Shown one piece after another: positions 2,396 through 64,000 of a stretch of 64,000 nt of DNA. A model generated the notes under the pieces. That model was not told the origin of the DNA and did no database searches. It saw only the letters and a list, made by a program, of their open reading frames with translations. The stretch's first letter is position 1, and each line of letters starts with the position of its first letter. Location of the stretch: contig JAAFIG010000002.1 in assembly GCA_013298595.1 (NCBI GenBank), positions 78,781-142,780 of the forward strand, read 5' to 3'. A program made the position numbers and the translations under genes. This DNA is from Deinococcales bacterium. Its GTDB lineage: Bacteria; Deinococcota; Deinococci; Deinococcales; JAAFIG01.

Positions 2396-3151
2396 TCATT
2401 GCGAATGCCCCAAGCATTCTTGAGCCGCCTCGAGCGATTGCGCGAGCTTTGCGATCAACACATCTCGAGGTGGCAATTGCGTTAAGTATTCCGCCACATG
2501 AATTCTGCTTTTACCCAACTCGAGCAATTCGATTTGTTCTTGTTTTTTACCTGTGCAAAGAATTTTTAAGCCCAGATAATCCAGAATGTATGGGTCTTTG
2601 AACAGCATTTCAGGGGCAACCTGACCTGTTTGGTGTAATTGCTCAAGGTCATGCCGAATGGTTTGCTCGGGTTGTTGAGAGAGTGCGCTGCGTTCAAAAA
2701 GTTGTGAAGCAATACGTTCTTGCAATTGCCGTGATGACCAACGCTCGAGTTGTGCCATTTCTTGGTAAAAAGTTCGTTTTAAATCGTCTTTGATGTAAAT
2801 TAGCGTTTTGATTTTTGTCCAACTCAATGGTCTCCGCAGTGCAGAGACAATCTCGAGGTTCGTAAAAACCTTAGCAAATTGCAAACAATGACGCAGTTGT
2901 GCGACACTCCAACCACTGCCGAACTCGAGGCTTAAATCTGTTGCCAAGTGCTTCACAATTTGTTTGCCGTATTCGGCTCGAGAATGTTGCAGCACCTCTT
3001 GGTTTATTCGTGTGCCAATGTTCCAGTACAACAAACTGAGTTCGGCATTGACTGCCATGACCGTTTGATTTCGGGCTGTTTTGATCAAATGGTGCACATC
3101 GGTCAGTAACTCGAGTGGGGGTTGAAGTGCAGGGGTTTTTCGGGCGGGCAT
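2396..3151 (-). CDS. DUF1016/YhcG-family protein apparently lacking the PD-(D/E)XK nuclease core (possible gene remnant)
   Basis: The N-terminal two thirds match the YhcG/DUF1016 pattern (NAELSLLYWNIGTRINQEVL..RAEYGKQIV, KDPYILDYLGL, ELLELGK). It then jumps to the C-terminal tail motif (RIHVAEYLTQLPPRDVL). The ~95 aa that carry the nuclease core in full-length homologues are absent. Start taken at MPARK; the longer ORF start at 3223 runs into a terminator-like repeat. Confidence 0.6.
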   Translation of the reverse strand: MPARKTPALQPPLELLTDVHHLIKTARNQTVMAVNAELSLLYWNIGTRINQEVLQHSRAEYGKQIVKHLATDLSLEFGSGWSVAQLRHCLQFAKVFTNLEIVSALRRPLSWTKIKTLIYIKDDLKRTFYQEMAQLERWSSRQLQERIASQLFERSALSQQPEQTIRHDLEQLHQTGQVAPEMLFKDPYILDYLGLKILCTGKKQEQIELLELGKSRIHVAEYLTQLPPRDVLIAKLAQSLEAAQECLGHSQ

Positions 3152-3180
3152 GGTGAAGCGTTTAGCAAGTTTGTGGGTAA

Positions 3181-3214
3181 CCCTCCAGCCTTCAATCTCG
3201 AGGGTGATTTTTTG
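3181..3214 (+). repeat. Third, degenerate copy of the CCCTCGAG-CCTTCAAT-CTCGAGGG hairpin module
   Basis: CCCTCCAG, CCTTCAAT, CTCGAGGG, TGATTTTTTG. The left arm carries one mutation. It is flanked by GGCTCGAGTAGTTCAA, the reverse complement of the TTGAACTACTCGAG flank of copy 1. Confidence 0.6.
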
Positions 3215-3353
3215 TGCAAACAACTAGGCTCGAGTAGTTCAAGAATTTATTTGTAACGCACTTACTTGAATATCTCGAGATTGGTCACACGTGCCACCAT
3301 ACAGGTGTACGTCTATGGTCTCTTGAGCAACCCCTGTGCACTAATATCAAGTT

Positions 3354-6582: not shown

Positions 6583-6813
6583 TTAGTCAAGTTGTGCAGG
6601 TAATTGCATTGTTTCCCAATACTGCATTCGTATAAAAAATCGGGCGAGTTCTTCTAGGCTCGAGAATCGTTCACGAATAATTCCTGGCATGACTTGGACA
6701 GCAGCTTGAAAGCCATTGATTGAATCGTTGGTGACGGTTACCAGAATGGTTAATTTTTTAACAGGATCTGTTTCTGGTGGTTGTGTGGCTGTCTGAGTAC
6801 TGGTTTGCAACAT
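6583..6813 (-). CDS. Hypothetical small protein (76 aa)
   Basis: Internal ATG preceded by GAGGAGAAAAA. No recognisable motifs. The longer 107-aa ORF-track version has no RBS. Confidence 0.4.
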   Translation of the reverse strand: MLQTSTQTATQPPETDPVKKLTILVTVTNDSINGFQAAVQVMPGIIRERFSSLEELARFFIRMQYWETMQLPAQLD

Positions 6814-7209
6814 TTTTTCTCCTCTCGAACTGTTGGGAGGTATGTTGCAATATGGCTGGTAACGTTGCTGTAACGAATAAAATTTAAGTCGTTGGCAACA
6901 ATACAAATGCGTATTTGTAAAAATGCGTGTTACAAAACCCCAGACTTTTATGAGAACACGGATGCCACAAACGTTACATAGAAAGCACAGGTTGTACTGC
7001 TATTTTTTTGCCCTACCAAGCGGAACTAAGTTGTCATGTACAATAAAAAACAATTTTAGCAACCTTCGTTTGAGCGCAAAATCAGGTCTTTGATTTAGGC
7101 TAAAAAGTTTTGTTATGCCCACGTTACTGGCTGCAAAGCAGAATGCGTTTCGATGTCTGGTTACGTGGCTCGAGTTGGAACAACGCTTAGTCAGTACAAA
7201 GGAGAAAGT

Positions 7210-8940
7210 ATGAAACAACTCAATTGGTTTATTTGTTTAACCCTGTGCATCAGTGTCCTAGTCGCCTGCGGTTCACCCACAGCCACCATTACAGGGGTCA
7301 GTATTACCGCTTCACCCAGCGCTCAACCACTGGATGCTGGTGGAACAGTCACCTTAAACGCCATTGTTACAGGAACAGGAGCATTTAACACCGCTGTCAC
7401 TTGGAGCGTAGTCAGTGGTGCGGGAACATTATCGGAAATCACAACCTCGAGTGCGATTTTAACCGCACCAAATTTAGGGGTTGATTCGGTGGTGCAAATT
7501 CGGGCGGTCAGTCTGCAAGACTCGAGTAAAACCAAGGATGTAACATTTAGGGTTAATAAGGGTGCAACTGTTTCGGATGTCACCATTGCTGCTTCGCTGG
7601 TGGCTTTGCGTGAGGGAAGCACCAGTGAAATACAAGCCACTGTTCTTGGAACGGGTGCGTTCAGTTCAGAAGTAAACTGGACTCTTGAACCAAGTGGGTT
7701 TGGGACGCTCTCGAGTTCGACTGGTGCTAATGTCACGTACACTGCTCCAGCCATAAGTTTTGGTCGGGTGGTGCAAATTACTGCCAGCAGTGTCGAAGAC
7801 TCGAGTAAGCGTAAATCCATTTTTCTCAGTGTCAATGCAGTCAAAGCCAGTATTGCAGCGGGTAGCTTTCATTCATTGGCTTTAAAAACCGATAGAACAA
7901 TTCTCAGTTGGGGAAGTGATACCAATGGGCAACTTGGCGATGGCGGTTCAAGCACCGATCAATTCTTACCAGTGAGCGTTGCAAATGCCACAAACATTGT
8001 TGCAATAGCGGCTGGTGATTCACATTCATTGGCTTTGAAATTTGATGGCACAATTCTCAGTTGGGGAAATGATTTTAAAGGTCAACTTGGTGATGGTGGT
8101 TCAAACACCAATCAATCAGCACCTGTTCCCGTTACTGGGGCTAAGAATATTGTGGCAATAGCGGCTAGTGAATCCAATTCACTGGCACTAAAAGAAGATG
8201 GCACCATACTGGCTTGGGGAAGCGATGCGTTTAATCAACTTGGTAATGGCGCTGTAAATGAAACTAAATCTGTACCAGTTCCTGTTTTGAATGCCATAAA
8301 CATTGTTGCAATTGCGGCTGGTAGAAGACACGCCTTGGCTTTGCAAGCTGATGGAAGGCTCCTCAGTTGGGGTTCGGATGAGGATGGGCAACTGGGTGAT
8401 GGTGGTACAAATTCCGATAAAGACGCGCCTACGTTTATACCCAATGTCAATAACATCATCGCAATTGCGGCTGGAGAAGACTTCTCTTTGGCACTCAAAG
8501 CCGACGGAACAATGCTCAGTTGGGGAAGCGATGAGTTTGGTCAACTTGGTGACAGTGCCGAATTGAGCGATAAAGTCGCACCTGTAGTGGTGGCTGGTGT
8601 CACAAATATTATTGGAATAGCAGCGGGTCTGAATTATGCTCTTGCTCTAAAAGCAGATGGCACACTCATCAGTTGGGGTTCGGATGAGGGTGGTAAACTT
8701 GGTAATCCGAACAGTAGCGATAACCAGCCAACTTTTGTGCCAGCACTTATTGCAACAAATATTGTTGCAATAAGTGCTGGTGCATTCCATTCACTGGCTC
8801 TTAAATCTGATGGAACAATGCTGAGTTGGGGAAATTTTTTCTTTGGGCAACTGGGACAGGATACTAATTCGCCAACTTTCAATCCTAATGTACCTAGCCC
8901 CGTTGCTCTTGGTCAATTCAATAAAATCCGTGTTCCATAA
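7210..8940 (+). CDS. RCC1-repeat lipoprotein with two Big_2-like Ig domains
   Basis: GGAGAA RBS. MKQLNWFICLTLCISVLVAC|G lipobox. Two Ig-like repeats (ITASPSAQPLDAGGTVTLNAIVTGTGAFNTAVTWSV / IAASLVALREGSTSEIQATVLGTGAFSSEVNWTL). Then about 7 RCC1 repeats (HSLALK.DGT.LSWG....GQLGDG). Confidence 0.9.
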   Translation: MKQLNWFICLTLCISVLVACGSPTATITGVSITASPSAQPLDAGGTVTLNAIVTGTGAFNTAVTWSVVSGAGTLSEITTSSAILTAPNLGVDSVVQIRAVSLQDSSKTKDVTFRVNKGATVSDVTIAASLVALREGSTSEIQATVLGTGAFSSEVNWTLEPSGFGTLSSSTGANVTYTAPAISFGRVVQITASSVEDSSKRKSIFLSVNAVKASIAAGSFHSLALKTDRTILSWGSDTNGQLGDGGSSTDQFLPVSVANATNIVAIAAGDSHSLALKFDGTILSWGNDFKGQLGDGGSNTNQSAPVPVTGAKNIVAIAASESNSLALKEDGTILAWGSDAFNQLGNGAVNETKSVPVPVLNAINIVAIAAGRRHALALQADGRLLSWGSDEDGQLGDGGTNSDKDAPTFIPNVNNIIAIAAGEDFSLALKADGTMLSWGSDEFGQLGDSAELSDKVAPVVVAGVTNIIGIAAGLNYALALKADGTLISWGSDEGGKLGNPNSSDNQPTFVPALIATNIVAISAGAFHSLALKSDGTMLSWGNFFFGQLGQDTNSPTFNPNVPSPVALGQFNKIRVP

Positions 8941-9079
8941 ACCACCCGCTCGAGATCAGAAAGTCTTGTCTCGAGCCACACTTTTTGTTCTGCTCACGTT
9001 ACCTACTGTATGCAAAACGCTTGTTGCAGCACCATAAACCTCCCATTGAACTTGCTGCACCCATTAAGGAGCAAACCCC

Positions 9080-9229
9080 ATGAATACCATCCATTGTTAT
9101 CAAAACTTCCATCTGGCTGCTTGTGGTCTGATGGCTGTGCAAATCGTATCAAATATCGGTTTAGCCAAGGATTGTTTTGCACCACCCAAGCCAACACTAC
9201 TTATTGCAACAGGATTGTTACGCAAATGA
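9080..9229 (+). CDS. Possible 49-aa leader ORF translationally coupled to the next RCC1 gene
   Basis: TAAGGAG RBS 8 nt upstream of the ATG at 9080. Peptide MNTIHCYQNFHLAACGLMAVQIVSNIGLAKDCFAPPKPTLLIATGLLRK. Its TGA overlaps the ATG of the 9226 gene (AAATGA). Below the ORF-track size cutoff. Confidence 0.25.
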   Translation: MNTIHCYQNFHLAACGLMAVQIVSNIGLAKDCFAPPKPTLLIATGLLRK

Positions 9230-10560
9230 GCGCAGCATTCTCGGAAGTACCGTTGCTCGAGGATTTTCCCGAATTGGAGATTCGAGCGGATCGTTTTGTG
9301 GTGTTGCAAGGTCAACAAATTCTCTTAGAAGCTTGTATTTTTGCTCATCCAGCCTCAGAGCATAGTGTTCGTTGGACACTCGAGCAAGGCGCGGCTTGTT
9401 TATCACAGAATTTTGGTAGAACCACAGTGCTGCAAACCGATCATCGCTCGGAAACTGTTGTTGTGGCAGCACACACCGCCGATAGACGTTTGTCGCATCG
9501 TGTGGAAGTCAAGGCTAAACCGCTCAGTCATCAATCGTTTTCTTGTGGCGATGCCCATAGTTTGGCATTAACATCCGATGGTCAAGTGCTGGTTTGGGGT
9601 GAAAAGTATGTTTCAGAACCAACACTGGTTGGTTTAACACAAATTCAGTCTGTAGCGGCTGGTAGTAAGCATAGTTTAGCTTTAACACAAGCACAGACCG
9701 TGCTTTCTTGGGGTGATAATTCCTTAAATCAATTAGGGCGTTTATGGCAAGATCCAGGTATTGCATTAGAAGTCACCGATTTAACCGAGGTACTCGAGAT
9801 TAACGCAGGTACAGTGCATTCCTTAGCCACTCATCTGGATGGGTCTGCTAGTGCTTGGGGCAGTAATTTGTTTGGACAACTTGGGTTTGCATCATTAAGC
9901 GCTCAACTGCAATTTTCTCGAGTGCCGCGTCTCGAGCGTGTCAGTGCAGTGCAAGCTGGTTTTGGGCATTCTTTAGCTTTGACCGACACTGGTCAGGTGT
10001 TGGCGTGGGGTGCAAATGATTCTGGTCAACTGGGGATTGGTACAACCAAAGATATGTCCGAACCTACGCCGATTGTATTACCTATGGCTGTGGCTGCGAT
10101 TCAAACAGGGATGTACCATTCGGCTGCTTTAACCAACGATGGGCAAGTTTTAACTTGGGGGCGTAGTTTTCGGGATGGAATGGGTAAACCTTTACGCGAC
10201 TCATATCGCAGCTTGCCAATAATTGTTCCCGACTTAGGTGATATTGCTTCGATAGCGGCTGGGCATGGCTTTATAGTGGCACGTAGTGGACAAGGGAATG
10301 TTTTTATTTGGAATCAGCATCGGGTTTGGAATAGTAAATTCTCGGCAAATAGTCATTATCCAACACTTGTAACTGGTCTCGAGGAAATCGTGGCAGTTCA
10401 AGCGGGTACAGCGCACGTATTAGCCTTGCGTGCTGATGGAACATTATTTGCTTGGGGCGATAATAGTTTTGGGCAGCTTGGTATCACAGAAACCCATTGT
10501 CTAAATTCGCCTTGCAAAGTGGTTTTACCAAAAGGGATTCGTCTTAAAATGCCTGTGTAA
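9226..10560 (+). CDS. Cytoplasmic (no signal peptide) RCC1-repeat protein
   Basis: Start chosen at MSAAFSEVPLL. Repeats of the type HSLAL..DG.V..WG.N..GQLG. Confidence 0.8.
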   Translation: MSAAFSEVPLLEDFPELEIRADRFVVLQGQQILLEACIFAHPASEHSVRWTLEQGAACLSQNFGRTTVLQTDHRSETVVVAAHTADRRLSHRVEVKAKPLSHQSFSCGDAHSLALTSDGQVLVWGEKYVSEPTLVGLTQIQSVAAGSKHSLALTQAQTVLSWGDNSLNQLGRLWQDPGIALEVTDLTEVLEINAGTVHSLATHLDGSASAWGSNLFGQLGFASLSAQLQFSRVPRLERVSAVQAGFGHSLALTDTGQVLAWGANDSGQLGIGTTKDMSEPTPIVLPMAVAAIQTGMYHSAALTNDGQVLTWGRSFRDGMGKPLRDSYRSLPIIVPDLGDIASIAAGHGFIVARSGQGNVFIWNQHRVWNSKFSANSHYPTLVTGLEEIVAVQAGTAHVLALRADGTLFAWGDNSFGQLGITETHCLNSPCKVVLPKGIRLKMPV

Positions 10561-19193: not shown

Positions 19194-19218
19194 AGTGAAG
19201 TTTTGTCTGTTTCAAGCC

Positions 19219-19600
19219 GTTCTGCCCTCACGTGTAGGGGTCATCCGTAATTGCTGTAGTTGAAGTAAGAATTCTTGTAGTTCTTTCCTTACGTGTAGGG
19301 GTCATCCGCGAAACAGCTCTACAAAAACCATTGTTCCGCGTTCTTCTCTCACGCGTAGGGGTCATTCGGCGACGAACAGGTTTGATTTTCCAGATTCTTG
19401 AGTTCTTCCTTCATGTGTAGGGGTCATCCAATGTGAATAGAGTCATTGCACATATGTTACCGCGTTCTTCCCTCATGTATAGGGATCATCCGAAAGGAGT
19501 TGTGGAACGCCAAACCTCTTTCGGTGTTCTTCCCTCACGCGTATGGGTTATTCGGCTGCATCTAGCATCGTGTATTTCTCTCACGTATAGGGATCATCCA
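19219..19600 (+). CRISPR. CRISPR array, 7 x 29-bp type I-E-like repeats, 6 spacers (32, 31, 33, 33, 33, 17 bp)
   Basis: R1 GTTCTGCCCTCACGTGTAGGGGTCATCCG (19219). R2 GTTCTTTCCTTACGTGTAGGGGTCATCCG (19280). R3 GTTCTTCTCTCACGCGTAGGGGTCATTCG (19340). R4 GTTCTTCCTTCATGTGTAGGGGTCATCCA (19402). R5 GTTCTTCCCTCATGTATAGGGATCATCCG (19464). R6 GTTCTTCCCTCACGCGTATGGGTTATTCG (19526). R7 GTATTTCTCTCACGTATAGGGATCATCCA (19572). Confidence 0.9.
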
Positions 19601-19673
19601 GCACAAACACGAGTTCAAGTTTCATTGGGTACTTTTCTTTTCGTGAGAATCACTCTCTTCTAAGGTCTACAAC

Positions 19674-56438: not shown

Positions 56439-59400
56439 ATGCGCGACTTTAGCAAAGTAAAAATTCAACTTGCCAGCCCCGAGAAAATCCGTTCTTGGAG
56501 TTATGGTGAAGTCGAAAAACCAGAAACCATTAATTACCGTACACTCAAACCAGAACGTGATGGTTTGTTTGACGAGCGGATTTTCGGACCTGAAAAGGAT
56601 TACGAATGCGCTTGCGGTAAGTACAAACGTCAACGTTATGAAGGTAAAGTCTGTGAGCGTTGCGGTGTCGAAGTGACTAAACGCATCGTGCGTCGTTACC
56701 GCATGGGACATATCGAACTTGCTACGGCAGCTGCCCATATTTGGTATGTCAAAGATATTCCAAGTAAAATTGGTACCTTACTCGACCTCAGCGCTGGGCA
56801 ACTCGAGCAAGTCTTGTACTTTGGTAAGTTCATTGTGACCGATCCACAAGGTGCAATTAAAGATGGTCGCCCACTGAAAAAAGGCGAGTTGCTTTCCGAC
56901 GAAGAGTACCGCGAACTACGCATTGGTAAGCAAGAAACGTATTCTTTACAAGTTGGAACCCATGCCGAAGTGCGTGACGGAGAATACGTCACTCGAGGAC
57001 AAAAACTCGGTGGCAATGTCGTCTCGAAAATGGATGGTGTTGCCCAGTATCGTTTCCCACGCAAAGCAACCCTCGAGTACGCTCGAGAAGGCGAAGCCAA
57101 ATTCACACTGCCAAAAGGTGTGACCATTGAACTCGAAGCTTTCCGAGCTGGCGAAGAAATTTGTGATGGCATTGAAAATCACAGTATTCTAGCCACTCGA
57201 GATGGTGTGATCAGCATTACCGAACTTGGCGAAGGCTTTGGTCGTGGTGGTGTGATTATCGAAGTCCAAGACCCTGAAGATGCCCAAGTGCTCGAGCGTG
57301 TCTTTGTGCCAATGGGCTTTGAAGTGCTGGTTGGCGATGGCGAAAGTGTCGAATCTGATACCGAACTCGCCCAAGCCAATGGCGATTTAATTCGTATGCC
57401 CCGTGGTGCAAATGCCAGTGCTGTCAGCAGCAAAAAACGTGGTTCTAATCTCGATGTTTCCTTGACACTGCACTGGAATCTCGAGAAAACCCTCGAGATT
57501 AACCCAACCATGCACGTCTTGGTTGGCGATGGCGCAGAGTTTAGTGCTGGTGACCGTTTAATTGGTGCCATAGACCCATCCCAAGAAATTATGGCAGAAG
57601 CTGATGGTACATTAACACTGCAAGAACCAGCCAGCATCATTGTTTCTCGAGCAAAATTGTACAAATACGAAGATGAACCGATTGTGGTCAATGGCGACCG
57701 TGTTGAACCAGGCGATGACTTGGCAGACAAAGGCAATCTCAAATCCGAAATTCATGGTCGTATCGAAATTGATTTGGTACGTCGTCAAGTGCGCGTTGTT
57801 GAAGCTTACGACTTTGAAGCTCGCATGGGTGCAGAAGCCATCAAGCAATTGCTAGAAGGTATTGTTCTCGAGACCCTCGAAGCCGAATTAAACGAAGAAA
57901 TGACCAACCCAAGTCGCCACAAACGAGCCAAAGCCCGTAAGCGTCTCGAGGTGGCTCGTGCTTTCCGTAAGAGCGGGAATCGCCCAGAGTGGATGATTCT
58001 TGACAGCGTACCTGTGATGCCGCCAGATTTGCGTCCGATGGTGCAAGTGGATGGTGGGCGTTTTGCGACTTCAGATTTGAACGATTTGTACCGCCGCTTG
58101 ATTAACCGCAACAACCGTTTGAAGAAGTTAATGACCACGGGCGCACCAGAAATGATTGTTCGCAACGAAAAACGCATGTTGCAAGAAGCTGTAGATGCGC
58201 TGATTGACAATGGTCGTCGTGGTACTCCAGTCACCCACCCAGGTTCAGATCGAGCATTACGTAGCCTCACCGATTTACTTGGTGGTAAACAGGGTCGTTT
58301 CCGTCAGAACTTGCTTGGTAAACGCGTAGATTACTCTGGTCGTTCGGTGATTGTGGTTGGTCCACAATTGCGTTTACATCAATGCGGATTGCCAAAACGT
58401 ATGGCACTCGAGTTATTCAAACCATTTTTGTTTAAAGTGCTCGAGGAAAAAGGTGTTGTTACCAACATCAAGCAAGCCCGTAAGCTGCTCGAGCGTTACC
58501 GCGACACCCGCGACGAAATTTGGGATGCCTTAGAAGAAGTCATCCAAGACAAAGTGGTGCTGTTAAACCGCGCACCGACCTTGCACCGTCTTGGTATTCA
58601 AGCTTTCACCCCAGTTTTGGTTGAAGGTCAGGCTATTCAATTGCACCCACTGGTTTGCGAAGCCTTCAACGCCGATTTCGATGGCGACCAAATGGCAATT
58701 CACGTACCACTCTCGCCATACGCCCAAGCAGAAGCTCGAGTACAAATGCTTTCGGCACATAATTTGCTTTCGCCTGCTAACGGCGAACCAAACGTCAAAC
58801 CAGCTAAAGACATTATTTTAGGTATTTACACCCTGACCCAACCACGCCCAGGCAAAGTTGGTATGGGCAGTAAATTCAAAGATCAAGAAGAAGTCTTAAA
58901 AGCCCTCGAGAAGAACAAAGTTGATCTGAACTCTCGCATTGTTGTTGGTGGCAGAGAAACCAGCGCAGGCGCAATTCGCCATATCTTTGGTAATCTCGAT
59001 GAAGCCTTACATGCAGTACAACGCGGCGAAATTGACACCCAAGACAGTGTTTCAATCCGCTTAGATTTAGTCAGTGGCTCAGAGATTATTGAAACCACCA
59101 CAGGACGGGCATTGTTCCGTCGTATGGTCAACGAAACCATCACCGAAGATGGCAGTATCCTATCTCGAGAATACGTCAACCTGACCACCACCTACGGCAA
59201 GAACCCTTTGACCGAAATGGTGATTGATATCTTCAAAACCATGGGTGTGGAAAAAACTGCTGCGATTCTTGACGCACTCAAATCCAATGGTTTCAAACTC
59301 GCCAGTACCAGCGGCGTAACTGTCGGTATTGACGATGCCATGATTCCACCCGAGAAAACCGAATTGCTGCGAAAAGCCGACCTTGAACTCGAGCAAATCC

Positions 59401-61028
59401 GCGAAGATTCAGACCTTGGTTTGGTCACCGAAGAAGAACGTTACCGCCAAGTGATTACCTTGTGGACAAACACCACCGAGGATGTCACCAACGCTGCCTA
59501 CGCCAACTTTGAAAAGCATTACCCACTCAACCCGTTCTACGTCATGAGCCAATCAGGTGCCCGTGGTAACAAACAACAACTCCGCCAACTCATGGGTATG
59601 CGCGGATTGATGCAAAAACCAAACGGCGACACCATCGAACTCCCTGTACGCGCCAACTTCCGCGAAGGTCTGAACGTGCTCGAGTACTTCACCAGCACCC
59701 ACGGTGCACGTAAAGGTGGAGCTGACACGGCGCTTCGTACCGCAGACTCGGGTTACTTAACCCGTAAGCTTCACGATGTTGCCCACGAAATTGTCATCCG
59801 TGAACCAGACTGTGGTACATCCGATTACTTAACAATACCGCTGCTCGAGGATGGTAAACAACGCAAAGCTGGCGATATCGAAATGGGCTTATATGGTCGT
59901 CACCTCGGCGCTGACCTCGAGATTGGTGGCAAAACCCTCGAAGCTGGCTTGTTACTGAACACCGACGAAGTCAAATTTATCCTCAAACACCGCGAGCAAC
60001 TGGCAGGTGTACCAGTTCGTAGTCCAATTACCTGCCGTACTCGAGCTGGCGCTTGCCAAAAGTGCTACGGTTTTGACCTTTCACAAGCCAAACTTGTTTC
60101 CAAAGGCGAAGCTGTTGGTGTGATTGCCGCGCAATCCATCGGAGAACCAGGCACACAGCTAACCATGCGTACCTTCCACACAGGTGGTGTAGCAGGTGCC
60201 CAAGACATCACCCTTGGTTTGCCTCGCGTTGTTGAACTTTTCGAGGCTCGTAAGCCAAAAATCAAAGCCACACTCTCGGAAATTGATGGTATCGTCTCCA
60301 TCGCTGATGAAGACGGCAGCGATAAGATCATCCTGACTGTGACTGACAACGACCTTGCCAAGAAATATAAAGTCGAACGCAATACCCGTTTGTTAGTCCG
60401 TGAAGGCGACAAAGTCGAAGCTGGTCAAGTCATGACACGCGGTGCAATCAACCCAGAAGACTTACTCGACTCCAAAGGTGTTGAAGCAGCCCAACGTTAC
60501 CTCGTAGATGGTATCCAACAAGTGTACCGTCAACAAGGCGTGAAAATTCACGACAAGCACATCGAATTAATTGTCAAACAAATGTTCAAATACGTCGAAA
60601 TCCTCGAGGATACAGGCGATAGCGAATTCCTCGAAGGACAAGTACTCGAGAAATTCGATGTTGAACGCGAAAACGAACGACTCGAAGAAGCAGGCAAAAA
60701 TCCTGCTTCATGGAAACCAAAACTCATGGGTATCACCAAGAGCGCTTTATCCACCAAGTCGTGGTTATCAGCAGCCAGTTTCCAACACACCACTCACGTA
60801 CTCACCGAAGCCAGCGTCAGCGGCAAAGTAGACGAACTGATTGGCTTAAAAGAAAACGTGATTCTAGGCAAACTGATCCCAGCGGGAACAGGCTTAGCCG
60901 AAGTCAAAGAAATTCAAGTCATGGACGACCGCCTCCGCGAGAAAGTACTCGAGGGCAACGACCGAGCAACCCGCCTTGCCCAGAGCGGCAATGCAAATAT
61001 GCCACAAGCACCAGCTGGCGACGATTAA
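56439..61028 (+). CDS. rpoC: DNA-directed RNA polymerase subunit beta' (1529 aa, with ~300-aa lineage-specific insertion)
   Basis: Zn motif CACGKY...CERCGV; catalytic [12 protein letters not shown]; trigger-loop and bridge-helix motifs. A non-conserved block lies at about residues 162-460. Confidence 0.97.
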
Positions 61029-61047
61029 AACCCGTTATAAGCTCAAG

Positions 61048-61080
61048 AAACCCCCAAGCCGTAACTTGGGGGTTTTTGTG
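61048..61080 (+). terminator. Rho-independent terminator after rpoC
   Basis: AAA CCCCCAAG ccgtaa CTTGGGGG TTTTTGTG. Confidence 0.85.
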
Positions 61081-61109
61081 TTTACAGACAACACTGCTAT
61101 ACTTTTTAT

Positions 61110-61529
61110 ATGGCTCGAGACAAATACCATCAAGCCGTAAAGACAGCCCTGCAAAAAGCTGGTTGGAACGTCACCCATGACCCATTGCGCTTACAAATAG
61201 AAAGTATTCCAGTCTTAATAGACCTTGGAGCGGAACGACTGATTGCGGCTGAACGCAACGATGAAAAAATTGCCATTGAGATAAAAACATTTGGTGGAAA
61301 CTCAGACATCAACGATTTTCATGTAGCGCTTGGACAATACCTGAACTACCAAGTTTTTTTACACGAAGCAGAATCAAACAGAACTTTGTTTATTGCTGTG
61401 CCTGAAGATACTTGGTTTGATTTTTTTCAAAACCGAGTGATTCAAAAAATTTGTCAGCAACACAAGATTCGTTTCTTGGTCTACAACTCGTTACTCGAGG
61501 AGGTTATCTTATGGACATCCAGCAGTTAA
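61110..61529 (+). CDS. xisH: XisH-family protein
   Basis: MARDKYHQAVKTALQKAGWNVTHDP...IAAERNDEKIAIEIKTF...ALGQYLNY matches the XisH (fdxN-element excision factor) family pattern. Confidence 0.85.
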   Translation: MARDKYHQAVKTALQKAGWNVTHDPLRLQIESIPVLIDLGAERLIAAERNDEKIAIEIKTFGGNSDINDFHVALGQYLNYQVFLHEAESNRTLFIAVPEDTWFDFFQNRVIQKICQQHKIRFLVYNSLLEEVILWTSSS

Positions 61530-61846
61530 GAGAAATTATTCAAAAAACCCTAAAAGAATACGCTTCCATACCAAGCATCAATTCTACAAGTCAAGACCGT
61601 CTGATATTTGACACCAATGCAGATTCGTACCAATGGCTGAGTATGGGTTGGAATGGAATGCAACGCATTTTCAATGTCATCATCCACATTGAAATTCGTC
61701 AGAACTTGGTGTGGATTGAACGCAACAACTCGAGTATCGAAATTGGTGAAATTCTAGTCGAGCAAGGTGTTCCAAGAAACCAAATCGTACTGGCATTCCA
61801 TGCGCCATACAAACGTGGTTTACACGGTTATGCAACAGGCGAGTAA
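61511..61846 (+). CDS. xisI: XisI-family protein
   Basis: Start MDIQQLREIIQKTLKEYA overlaps the xisH 3' end by 19 nt. XisI-type N-terminus, in the usual pairing with xisH. Confidence 0.8.
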   Translation: MDIQQLREIIQKTLKEYASIPSINSTSQDRLIFDTNADSYQWLSMGWNGMQRIFNVIIHIEIRQNLVWIERNNSSIEIGEILVEQGVPRNQIVLAFHAPYKRGLHGYATGE

Positions 61847-62001
61847 AGTGAATTCCAGCAGGAACGGGTTTAGCCGAAGTCAAAGAAATTCAAGTCATGG
61901 ATGACCGTCTGCGCGAGAAGGTACTCGAGGGCAATGACCGTGCGGCAAGGCTGGCTCAAAGCGGCAGCGCACAAATCCAAGCCCCTGCTGGCGATGATTG
62001 A
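61847..62001 (+). pseudogene. Displaced duplicate of the rpoC 3' end
   Basis: Encodes [49 protein letters not shown]. The live rpoC tail (60871-61028) encodes [50 protein letters not shown]. About 82% DNA identity, with mostly synonymous differences in the first 90 nt. Confidence 0.85.
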
Positions 62002-62011
62002 AGAATAGAAT

Positions 62012-63259
62012 TTGCTCGAGATGAAGAGATTAAGAACCCGCAAGTCACAGCTCGGGGGGTTTGGTTTGACTCGAGATGACAATGAAAGTACAGTTCAAGA
62101 TATGGAAAAGCACCTAGAAAAAAAGAATAAGAATAAGAATGAGAATGAGTTTAACTGGAAGGGATGCTTGGTCATCTTTTTCGTGAGCTTGCTTGTACTG
62201 CCTTTTTTTGCAGTTCGTAGCCAAGACTCACTCCCACAAGTCAATATCGAAACCGTGGCGGCAAGTGACCATTCGTTGGTGGTCCGTTCAGATGGTGCTT
62301 TGTGGGCTTTTGGAGCAAATGAATCGGGGCAATTGGGCATGGGTACAACGGAAAACCAACTGAAACCTGTTCAAGTCATGACTGATGTCTCGAGTGTCGC
62401 GGCTGGTGGTCACTCGTTGGTTTTGAAGTCTGATGATTCTTTATGGACGTTTGGTCGCAATAATGTATGGCAACTTGGCGATGCAACCAAGATCAATAGG
62501 AGTAAACCAATACAAATCATGGGCGATGTCATCAATATTGCTACGGGTGCTGCTCACTCTTTTGCGATTAAAAAAGATCGTTCTTTATGGGCGTTTGGAT
62601 TCAATAATCAAGGGCAGCTTGGAGATGGTACAACTAACAGTCGGGGAAAGCCTGTCAAAATCATGGAAAATGTAGCAGAAGTTAGGGCAGGTGTTTTTAT
62701 CTCCCTTGTCTTAAAACTGGATGGTACACTTTGGTCTTTTGGTCAAGGAGGGTATTTGGGTGATGGTACTCTTAAGCAACGCCAAAAACCCGTAAAAGTG
62801 ATGGAAAATATCATCAAGATTGGAACAGGTGATTTTCATTCTTTGGCGTTAGGCAAAGACAAAACGCTTTGGGGATTTGGCTTGAATTACTATGGACAAC
62901 TTGGTGATGGTACAGATATTCAGGGGTGGATGAAACCAATTAGAATCATGTCCGATGTTTCATATGTCAGTGCTGGTTCTTATCATTCCTTAGTTATAAA
63001 AACGGATGGCACGCTTTGGGCATTTGGTAGAAATGATTTTGGTCAGCTTGGAAATGGGACAAACATCAATCAAAGAAAGCCAGTCAAAGTTATGGATAAT
63101 GTTGCTTTTGGAGCAGCAGGTAATATGTACTCTTTGGTAACAAAAACAGATGGTTCGTTGTGGGCATTTGGACAAAACAAGTTTGGACAACTTGGAGATG
63201 GGACAACAATAAACAGAAATCAACCTGTTCAAATTTTGACAGATGTACGAATCCCCTAA
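62012..63259 (+). CDS. Membrane-anchored RCC1-repeat protein
   Basis: N-terminal basic region plus a TM segment (CLVIFFVSLLVLPFFAV), then 7 RCC1 repeats (HSLV.K.DG.LW.FG.N..GQLGDGT). The exact start is uncertain. Confidence 0.8.
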   Translation: MLEMKRLRTRKSQLGGFGLTRDDNESTVQDMEKHLEKKNKNKNENEFNWKGCLVIFFVSLLVLPFFAVRSQDSLPQVNIETVAASDHSLVVRSDGALWAFGANESGQLGMGTTENQLKPVQVMTDVSSVAAGGHSLVLKSDDSLWTFGRNNVWQLGDATKINRSKPIQIMGDVINIATGAAHSFAIKKDRSLWAFGFNNQGQLGDGTTNSRGKPVKIMENVAEVRAGVFISLVLKLDGTLWSFGQGGYLGDGTLKQRQKPVKVMENIIKIGTGDFHSLALGKDKTLWGFGLNYYGQLGDGTDIQGWMKPIRIMSDVSYVSAGSYHSLVIKTDGTLWAFGRNDFGQLGNGTNINQRKPVKVMDNVAFGAAGNMYSLVTKTDGSLWAFGQNKFGQLGDGTTINRNQPVQILTDVRIP

Positions 63260-63404
63260 AGTCTTGCAAGGGGTGTTTCTTTTTCTCGAGAAACCTATTG
63301 TTTTCATGGCTCGAGAATCACTCTTCTGCTCTGTGCCATTCTTTCAGGCGCTACCTTCGCGCTTGGTCGGTAGGGCGCTTAGGCTCGAGCTTGTGCTGGT
63401 TGCG

Positions 63405-63827
63405 CTATGGCTCGAGGCTGATTGCTGCAACATTTTCGCCTAAGCGCATAAAATGCTTTAAATTCAGGGTGTATAACTTCTTCGCCCCAACTTTTAATGC
63501 ACTGGTTGCTATCAATGTGTCAAAAATTGTGCCACCTTGAATGCCTAAGTCAATTAACCGCTCCACACTGCTTTGATAATCGCTTGGCTCGAGAATAATT
63601 TGTTCAACACCTTTTAAGTTTCCATCCAGCATTTTCTTGACTTCTTTTGGCGGTATTAAATGCCGTCCTGTCAGTACCGAGTACAATTCTGCAATAGTAT
63701 GGGTGCTAATTGCGGCTCGAGATGCGGCTCGGCTTTCTGTAAAAACTTTTTTGCAACGCAGGTGTGCTTCGCGACACGGTAGCATTAAAGCAATCAGGAC
63801 ACTTGTGTCAAAAACATCTTTACTCAA
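63405..63827 (-). CDS. vapC: PIN-domain toxin (VapC-like)
   Basis: TTG start overlapping the upstream stop. VFDTSVLIAL ... IAELY ... FDTLIA gives PIN acidic residues in the canonical order. Confidence 0.7.
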   Translation of the reverse strand: MSKDVFDTSVLIALMLPCREAHLRCKKVFTESRAASRAAISTHTIAELYSVLTGRHLIPPKEVKKMLDGNLKGVEQIILEPSDYQSSVERLIDLGIQGGTIFDTLIATSALKVGAKKLYTLNLKHFMRLGENVAAISLEP

Positions 63828-64000
63828 GGTCGTCCATTCGGGTAGCTCGAGCAGTTACTATCATTTCTTCGATGGAATCTGGAATATCTGTGCCTGTCCA
63901 GACGTATATGCCATCTTGTTCGATTACTTCCCCGTCGCAGCGTGGACTGAGTACAAGTGAACCATCTTGGATTTGGATATCGAATTGACTTTGAGGCTCG
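63820..64000 (-). CDS. Putative antitoxin partner of VapC, partial (runs off window)
   Basis: Minus-strand frame reads ...DGSLVLSPRCDGEVIEQDGIYVWTGTDIPDSIEEMIVTARATRMDDLE*. Its stop overlaps the vapC start by 8 nt. Confidence 0.45.
   Translation of the reverse strand, partial: EPQSQFDIQIQDGSLVLSPRCDGEVIEQDGIYVWTGTDIPDSIEEMIVTARATRMDDLE

Follow-up and report, generated by a model that had tools for sequence, protein, structure and literature searches.

Why should the end of an essential gene be present twice, with a pair of small genes lodged between the two copies? The question is raised by a stretch of 64,000 nucleotides from a Deinococcales bacterium (the window; contig JAAFIG010000002.1, positions 78,781 to 142,780), in which the last codons of rpoC, the gene for the beta' subunit of RNA polymerase, are found again directly behind an adjacent xisH-xisI gene pair (xisHI). 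For nearly three decades the products of these two genes have been regarded as auxiliary factors of a single developmental recombinase; to our knowledge, most copies of the pair reside in genomes that lack this recombinase, and no role is known for them. The evidence assembled here favors, on balance, the view that xisHI is a compact, nuclease-encoding selfish cassette that lacks an integrase and that was inserted behind rpoC by the process known as insertion with long target duplication.

The end of rpoC is duplicated around xisHI

A preliminary description of the locus held that the last ~155 bp of rpoC recur right after the xisI stop codon, at about 82% identity and with a single 3-nt indel. 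The repeat is real and its coordinates are correct: local alignment pairs positions 60870-61029 with 61845-62002, blastn of the sequence against itself yields 80.5% identity over 154 nt (E = 8e-34), a repeat search in the window returns the pair at 82% identity over 125 nt, and the coding part shows 82% DNA identity with one codon indel. The homology runs past the stop codon and through the terminator hairpin, to about 61087 and 62068, and the repeated unit is thus made up of the last 52 codons of rpoC plus its terminator, that is, ~220 bp in direct orientation (direct repeats DR1 and DR2; Table 1). DR2 begins at the xisI stop codon. Further downstream (61088-61110 against 62069-62102, up to both start codons) the alignment is gapped and weak, and for this reason no homology is claimed beyond the terminator. 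The longest tract of identity between the copies is a single block of 32 nt, in which 60894-60925 equals 61870-61901.

Only the rpoC terminator, xisH and xisI were said to lie between the copies, in about 820 bp and without an integrase, and this also holds. The intervening segment measures 818 bp and contains no open reading frame (ORF) for a recombinase, while the unique insert (61088-61845, ~760 bp) holds xisH and xisI alone. No serine or tyrosine recombinase was found between the repeats or elsewhere in the 64-kb window, in which genes of the transposase type are confined to a Tn7-like element at a distance of 36 kb. Neither does the insert encode a methyltransferase, and XisI is devoid of such a domain. 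The two genes form a co-oriented pair matching PF08814 and PF08869. The XisH family has been placed in the PD-(D/E)XK nuclease superfamily (PMC3424549), and the XisH of the window has structural relatives in PDB 2inb/2okf (E ~1e-33) and conserves the catalytic-type residues D38, E57 and K59, which are invariant positions of the family.

The divergence between the two tails is of the coding type. The downstream copy (copy 2; 61852-62001) remains in frame and ends in its own TGA stop (61999-62001); immediately 5' of it, a second TGA (61849-61851) takes the place of a Leu codon, so that copy 2 is joined to no ORF. Codon alignment of 60876-61028 with 61852-62001 gives, over 50 codons, 27 identical, 19 synonymous and 4 non-synonymous, in addition to one 1-codon indel. 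The corresponding Nei-Gojobori (NG86) estimates of the synonymous and non-synonymous rates are dS ~1.10 and dN ~0.055, for a dN/dS of ~0.05. These figures bear out the earlier reading of copy 2 as an open frame with its own stop and a nearly identical peptide, distinguished from copy 1 by mostly synonymous changes.

A working end and a relic

The C-terminal part of the RpoC encoded in the window is closest to that of four metagenomic proteins: P0001 (92% identical; locus L004), P0002 (88%; L003, from a metagenome-assembled genome named Deinococcales bacterium), P0003 (87%; L005) and P0004 (69%; L006). Behind copy 1, the terminator hairpin folds at -21 kcal/mol (z = -3.4), and homologous hairpins of -25.4 and -28.1 kcal/mol are present in L004 and L003. 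The remnant behind copy 2, which contains mismatches and a 13-nt insertion, is no more stable when folded than shuffled sequence (z = 0.03). The downstream copy is hence a decaying relic, as its terminator no longer folds, and the proposal that one of the two ends had been displaced is well founded in this respect. Since the coding part of this relic has hardly changed as protein, the synonymous differences must predate the event. Indeed, if one copy had drifted neutrally after a local duplication (mean dN/dS ratio, omega, of ~0.5), the probability of finding 6 or fewer non-synonymous among 26 changes would be 7e-5.

The analysis thus supports, at the level of codon divergence, the earlier claim that each tail evolved in a lineage of its own as a functional end of rpoC. 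L004, the closest relative, has a working RpoC that ends in the manner of copy 2 (...SGSAQIQAPAGD, lacking the deleted codon), and both tail types therefore exist as functional ends in the clade. Over the full length of rpoC, the DNA of the window diverges from that of L004 by ~18%, as much as the tail copies diverge from each other, and the tail of L004 is a fine-scale mosaic of copies 1 and 2. The identity profile between the window and L004 along rpoC revealed no clear recombination breakpoint upstream of the tail. As to which copy is foreign, the codon deletion is common to copy 2 and L004 and is absent from copy 1, L003 and L005, and the tail of L003, which has no cassette, is 80.3% identical to copy 2 and 76.7% identical to copy 1 (over about 150 sites, which are too few). 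Together with the decay of its terminator, these features are suggestive of copy 2 being the resident tail and copy 1 the imported one.

Recurrent occupation of the site behind rpoC

The region downstream of rpoC differs markedly among the relatives. In L004, the same terminator and promoter-like segment as in the window are followed by an xisH gene, at which the contig stops; its first 42 residues are only 55% identical to the XisH of the window, while 38 of the 42 match P0171. In L005, a different terminator precedes a third type of xisH, which matches the invariant N-terminal positions of the XisH family. L003, on the other hand, has no xisHI and shows one tail and one strong terminator followed by a convergent infC gene, and in L006 a Piwi-SIR2 pair follows rpoC. 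The rpoC-adjacent xisH genes of the window, L004 and L005 are ~55% identical to one another, whereas the window xisH is 69-93% identical, over the same residues, to cassettes located at other loci. Judging from these identities, three different xisH lineages occupy the rpoC 3' site in three related Deinococcales-like genomes, which indicates recurrent occupation or replacement and not vertical descent. The rpoC 3' site is thus a recurrent landing site in this lineage.

The DNA found 3' of rpoC is variable beyond the xisHI pairs themselves, comprising xisHI, an RCC1-repeat gene and a PIN-domain gene in the window (61110-63827), infC in L003, and the genes for Piwi (prokaryotic Argonaute) and SIR2 in L006 (1828-4865). 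The site may be a hotspot for defense or addiction modules.

Related cassettes at other loci

The nearest homologues of the window XisH (60-77% identical) come from the same lineage, which is rich in the hexamer CTCGAG (see below), and reside at other loci. In L007, L008 and L009, three independent assemblies, the gene order is ROK, VWA_CoxE, xisH, xisI (L010 ends inside xisI), and the cassette is 70% identical to that of the window. Directly after the xisI stop codon of L007, positions 2962-3035 repeat the last ~24 codons of the VWA_CoxE gene, its stop and ~10 nt beyond (2125-2213), with 77% identity, an in-frame 12-nt indel and a stop codon of its own. A similar arrangement is found in L061, from an unrelated organism, where at least 87 codons of the 3' part of an AP-endonuclease-family gene are duplicated at 90% identity; the copies differ by 10 synonymous and 11 non-synonymous codon changes, and the relic has a premature stop (TGG to TAG). 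In L050, the end of a convergent Band7 gene is repeated after each of two highly diverged tandem cassettes. Other relatives in the 60-77% range sit beside GHL10 and p450 genes, an acetyltransferase gene and an aminotransferase gene. In addition, 40 plasmids of cyanobacteria carry xisHI pairs, and 14 of these plasmids are conjugative; a search of phage records turned up no homologue of XisH.

To place these cases in context, 80 further xisH loci were retrieved from metagenomes by profile query and 91 xisH-xisI pairs were delimited with hidden Markov models, comparing in each the 500 nt after xisI with the 1200 nt before xisH. Direct-orientation matches reached 359 bits, as opposed to at most 31.9 bits for inverted matches and 26.5 bits for mismatched loci. 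In a first control with shifted cassettes, 8 of 110 comparisons exceeded 40 bits; this control was not clean, because the neighborhoods hold other local repeats, and it was therefore replaced by a position-aware criterion (a score of at least 40 bits, no more than 100 nt between the xisI stop and the start of the downstream copy, and no more than 500 nt between the end of the upstream copy and xisH) applied also to 717 pseudo-cassette placements in the same loci. Repeats of this kind flank 11 of 70 non-redundant cassettes, compared to 10 of the 717 placements (odds ratio 13, Fisher P = 2e-7). They involve gene 3' ends in the window, L007, L061 and L050; gene 5' ends with their promoter in L026 (a protein kinase gene) and L092; noncoding DNA in L049, L063, L030 and L034; and paired small-ORF or low-complexity segments in L033. 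The noncoding flank repeat of L043 and the weaker flank match of L095 (42.8 bits), a locus with tandem cassettes, fall outside the position criterion.

The same footprint around related cassettes suggests that xisHI pairs may be self-spreading DNA that moves without an integrase, in line with the earlier proposal that they behave as small mobile modules, which finds backing both in the duplicated gene ends of L007-L009, L061 and L050 and in the enrichment of flank repeats. The further claim that they target the terminus of an essential gene stands only in part. It agrees with the reoccupation of the rpoC 3' site by three xisH lineages, but it fails as a general rule, given that relatives sit at a VWA/CoxE gene, an AP-endonuclease gene, gene 5' ends and noncoding DNA, and that four of six contexts in the lineage show no flank repeat. 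Because the duplicated targets vary, a strict targeting of rpoC is not supported.

Several cassettes are tightly packed against their neighbors. In L022, xisH overlaps the 3' end of an aminotransferase gene by 35 nt (2911-2945), and in L018 the end of xisI overlaps that of a convergent P450 gene by 9 nt (6720-6728), which suggests that insertion rewrote the last codons of these neighbors. Tandem arrays of diverged xisHI copies are seen in L095 (1668-4045), which includes an extra xisI-like gene 82% identical to the xisI of the first cassette, in L050 (1945-3740) and in L033 (1968-4752), where the cassette is embedded in a series of other small ORFs.

The hexamer CTCGAG occurs 298 times in the 64 kb of the window, or approximately once per 215 bp; for the hexamer palindrome that ranks second in frequency, 56 sites were counted. 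CTCGAG is distributed evenly over coding and intergenic DNA and falls mostly in one codon frame in rpoB and rpoC, and its excess is common to L003, L004, L005, L006, L007, L013, L018, L021 and L022. It is a highly iterated palindrome comparable to the cyanobacterial HIP1; the literature searched yielded no link between CTCGAG and iterated palindromes. In four of six independent cassettes of the lineage, those of L007, L013, L018 and L021, the hexamer lies within the 25 nt that follow the xisI stop codon, where the window and L022 lack it; the background rate is 9-12% (binomial P ~0.003). It also constitutes codons 2-3 of xisH in the window, L004 and L007 (ATGGCTCGAGAC). Cassette junctions may form at CTCGAG sites, although the sample is small.

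A possible mechanism and its alternatives

In the process that we favor, DNA from a relative at the level of a sister species would have brought in the cassette along with the rpoC tail and terminator of the donor. Homologous recombination of the incoming DNA inside the recipient rpoC tail would then have followed, with the 32-nt identical block as the likely crossover site and, as the likeliest route, either a Campbell-type single crossover of a circularized molecule (tail, terminator and xisHI) or a one-sided, homology-anchored insertion. The outcome would be an intact, hybrid rpoC with a working terminator, followed by xisHI and by the displaced resident tail with its decaying terminator. 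A break made by XisH might take part in this process, and XisI might act as the antidote to a toxic partner. Because both flanks are copies of a conserved essential-gene end, the cassette would carry portable homology arms that could allow it to be excised, to be replaced or to move into relatives, and such arms would explain the presence of three xisH lineages at one site in three related genomes.

Several observations weigh against this interpretation. No true empty site (rpoC with a single tail followed by the RCC1 gene) and no relative with an RCC1 neighbor were found among the genomes and metagenomes searched, and it follows that the direction and route of the event are what we infer; L003 does have a single tail and no xisHI, but its downstream neighbor is infC and not RCC1. 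A scan of metagenomes with a wobble-tolerant 62-nt tail pattern gave 0 matches, the lineage being essentially absent from that collection, and when a genome collection was scanned for the RpoC tail peptide, the universal KLIPAGTG word saturated the results, which comprised no more than two loci, both from distant Firmicutes. The tail of L004 is equidistant from the two copies (87.5% identical to each), which leaves the shared codon deletion and the terminator decay as the sole basis for calling copy 2 native. In a lineage of which the sampling is small, a flank repeat was not found in four of six readable cassette contexts (L013, L018, L021 and L022), and ~84% of the surveyed cassettes likewise lack one. 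Where repeats do occur they are heterogeneous, extending from gene 3' and 5' ends to noncoding DNA and tandem cassettes, and the neighborhoods of the cassettes are generally repeat-rich.

A first alternative explanation is true homing. XisH, acting as a sequence-specific endonuclease, would cut the cassette-free rpoC 3' sequence in the conserved stretch coding for KLIPAGTG, where the repeat has its boundary, and repair of the double-strand break would copy the foreign tail and xisHI into the cut gene. The order of parts is identical to that of mobile-ORF elements (PMC3630166), XisH has a nuclease fold with conserved catalytic residues, three xisH lineages lie at the same rpoC site and the repeat boundary falls within a universally conserved coding stretch. 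Yet cassettes 60-77% identical to this one occupy unrelated sites with no evident common target sequence, and the duplications in the survey include gene 5' ends and noncoding DNA, all of which makes homing in this strict sense unlikely. We deem it quite improbable that a recombinase supplied in trans, be it an XisF-like large serine recombinase or a tyrosine integrase, was responsible, with XisH and XisI as accessory or directionality factors and the tails as left and right attachment sites (attL and attR). The requirement for xisH and xisI in the XisF-dependent excision of the Anabaena fdxN element (as cited in PMC4874684 and PMC4853749) and the 32-nt identical core inside the repeats would both suit this notion. 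However, neither the cassette nor the 64 kb encodes such an enzyme, the Tn7-like transposase genes being 36 kb away; ~220-bp repeats with 82% identity and coding-type divergence are unlike attachment sites born of one short-core exchange; the duplicated targets differ among cassettes; and xisHI without xisF is common (PMC4853749).

A purely local event must be considered very improbable; in such a scenario, an xisHI pair received by vertical descent would have come to be enclosed by a tandem duplication of the rpoC end within this lineage, and the copies would later have diverged or undergone patching by gene conversion. That xisH follows rpoC in three relatives could suggest ancestry, and the L061 copies do fit decay in place; but the three rpoC-adjacent xisH genes are not orthologous, the relic terminator of the window has decayed while its coding part has hardly changed as protein, and a dN/dS of 0.05 at a dS of 1.1 is incompatible with neutral drift of one copy in place (P = 7e-5 to 1e-8). 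Slighter still is the probability that the locus is an artefact, created when the rpoC ends of two co-occurring species were joined through shared sequence during metagenome assembly. The lineage is known mainly from metagenomes, and yet the same architecture was assembled at another gene in three independent samples (L007-L009), an XisH identical to that of the window (P0121) is encoded on a 271-kb NCBI contig, the junction falls precisely at the xisI stop, and the decay of the relic (TGA, 13-nt insertion and loss of the hairpin) would not be expected from a chimera of two working genes.

Comparison with known systems

By analogy, insertion with long target duplication is the best-fitting known process. 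It was described for restriction-modification (R-M) complexes, which encode nucleases in small inserts without mobility genes (Nobusato et al. 2000; Furuta, Abe and Kobayashi 2010, PMC2853133), leave direct target repeats of more than 30 bp that in some cases overlap gene 3' ends, undergo allelic substitution at one locus and are mainly encountered in bacteria with natural competence, such as Thermus, and in Microcystis (PMC2853133). The parallels are extensive. Here too we find a small nuclease-encoding complex with no transposase or integrase, an insert well under 20 kb (~760 bp), direct duplications of host DNA above 30 bp (~220 bp) that extend in some cases over gene 3' ends and are statistically enriched as flank repeats, substitution of alleles at one locus, and a distribution that takes in naturally competent groups (including Thermus) and cyanobacteria. 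The differences lie in the cargo, which is XisH and XisI with no methyltransferase; in the copies, which are mostly >90% identical in the published R-M cases and here are 82% identical, differing as orthologues of two lineages do; and in the duplicated target, which is the end of an essential gene. Lacking a methyltransferase, the locus would work like this class of insertions without being an R-M system.

A second parallel is provided by the mobile-ORF endonuclease elements of fungal mitochondria that duplicate a C-terminus, as in atp6 of Allomyces macrogynus and atp6, atp9, cox2 and nad3 of Glomus (PMC3630166). These elements display the same succession of gene core, in-phase foreign C-terminus, endonuclease gene and displaced native C-terminus, with copies that have diverged as DNA and are near identical as protein, and the arrangement has been read as horizontal transfer. 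The case presented here concerns instead a bacterial chromosome and is known from sequence alone; its nuclease is a PD-(D/E)XK-fold XisH with a partner, XisI, and not a LAGLIDADG or GIY-YIG enzyme, and its cassette is a separate operon behind a terminator and not an in-frame fusion.

The origin of the arrangement had initially been likened both to recombination through flanking homology and to integrase-driven elements at tRNA or tmRNA genes. The former comparison fits; the latter fits less well. Integrase-driven elements at the 3' ends of tRNA, tmRNA or protein genes likewise restore the end of their target and leave a direct repeat on the far side, but the xisHI cassette has no integrase, measures only about 760 bp, is bounded by long, diverged repeats (82% identical, with one 32-nt identical block) and not by an identical short core, and has relatives at many different targets.

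In Anabaena, xisH and xisI lie inside a 55-kb fdxN element that the serine recombinase XisF excises in the course of heterocyst development (Ramaswamy et al. 1997; Hwang et al. 2014, as cited in PMC4853749 and PMC4874684). The families (PF08814 and PF08869) and the overlapping organization of the gene pair are the same in the window, in which, by contrast, no XisF was found in 64 kb, there is no large element, the host is not a cyanobacterium, rpoC is intact and the pair itself is the repeat-flanked unit. The literature consulted deals with xisH and xisI as fdxN excision factors (PMC4853749, PMC4874684) or as markers of gene exchange among filamentous bacteria, and in it we found no description of xisHI as an autonomous cassette flanked by target duplications. 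We can thus tentatively envisage, as a rather doubtful generalization, that the abundant orphan xisHI pairs of cyanobacteria, Beggiatoaceae and this Deinococcales-like lineage are widespread autonomous selfish nuclease cassettes, in which a break made by XisH would promote insertion, XisI would restrain it and duplicated host DNA would serve as homology arms, the fdxN role being a domesticated special case.

The long duplications of host DNA, the swapping of lineages at one site and the lack of an integrase would constitute the first sequence-level evidence of the xisHI pair itself as a mobile unit, and they offer a testable explanation for its orphan copies. If correct, this interpretation would extend gene mobility by long target duplication beyond R-M systems, with a new family of cargo, and would give bacteria an equivalent of those endonuclease elements by which the C-termini of mitochondrial genes are overwritten. 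It also carries a warning for phylogenetics, in which rpoC serves as a marker, in that the 3' end of this gene can be of foreign origin.

Other features of the locus and of the window

The features of the locus are listed in Table 1. The segment 61075-61114, which includes the -10-like element preceding xisH, is 93% identical in L004; a consensus promoter scan made no call at this element, which is probably, from its sequence and position, the promoter of a leaderless xisHI transcript. For the RCC1-repeat gene, the ATG at 62102 lies 7 nt after a -10-like hexamer, with a promoter-like site at 62066-62094, and we have placed the start there in preference to the TTG of the listed ORF.

Table 1. 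Coordinates of rpoC, its two tails, the xisHI cassette and adjacent genes in the window
Feature	Position	Strand	Remarks
rpoB	52902-56363		Gene 5' of rpoC
rpoC	56439-61028	+	RNA polymerase beta', 1529 aa, intact and unsplit; ORF, C-terminal part matches PF04998; last ~52 codons form the upstream repeat copy
DR1, upstream copy	60870-61087	+	rpoC tail (stop 61026-61028) and working terminator; from alignments; probably the imported copy (codon-indel parsimony)
32-nt identical block	60894-60925	+	From alignments; candidate crossover site
rpoC intrinsic terminator hairpin	61041-61081	+	AAACCCCCAAG...CTTGGGGGTTTTT
Extended -10-like element	61095-61103	+	TGcTATACT, 6 nt before the xisH ATG; read from sequence
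xisH	61110-61529	+	139 aa; PD-(D/E)XK-fold nuclease-family protein; PF08814, E = 3e-50
xisI	61511-61846	+	111 aa; start overlaps the end of xisH by 19 nt; PF08869, E = 7e-33; PDB 2nlv/2nvm/3d7q
DR2, downstream copy	61845-62068	+	Displaced rpoC tail and decayed terminator remnant with 13-nt insertion; probably the resident tail
RCC1-repeat protein gene	62102-63259	+	First gene after the relic; PF25390/PF00415; listed ORF starts at TTG 62012

Screening of XisH, XisI and the RCC1 and PIN proteins against the defense-system models of PADLOC gave no match. Aside from xisH itself, the only tblastn match to XisH in the window is a weak one (E = 0.09) to a DUF1016 protein (YhcG-like, PD-(D/E)XK-related; 2396-3223, minus strand), which is not an XisH. 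Next to the RCC1 gene, the PIN-domain (VapC-like) gene (63405-63827, minus strand) and a small upstream partner (63824-64000) that runs off the end of the window are probably a toxin-antitoxin pair.

Between 13538 and 22573, the window contains a Tn7-like set of genes (a weak TnsA-like gene, rve/TnsB-like, TniB/AAA_22 and TniQ) directly followed by Cas6, an array resembling clustered regularly interspaced short palindromic repeats (CRISPR; 19213-19602, with 7 degenerate repeats at a 61-62 nt period), Cse1/Cas8e, Cas7 and Cas5. Cas3, Cas1 and Cas2 were not seen in this region, which looks like a CRISPR-associated transposon with a type I-E-like Cascade. The window also encodes four RCC1-repeat (beta-propeller) proteins (402-2255, 7153-8940, 9010-10560 and 62012-63259), the genes of which carry DNA repeats both internally and between genes (1-251 with 2122-2373, and 7870-8831), the first of these, with 250 nt and 83% identity, being a pair found where the window begins.

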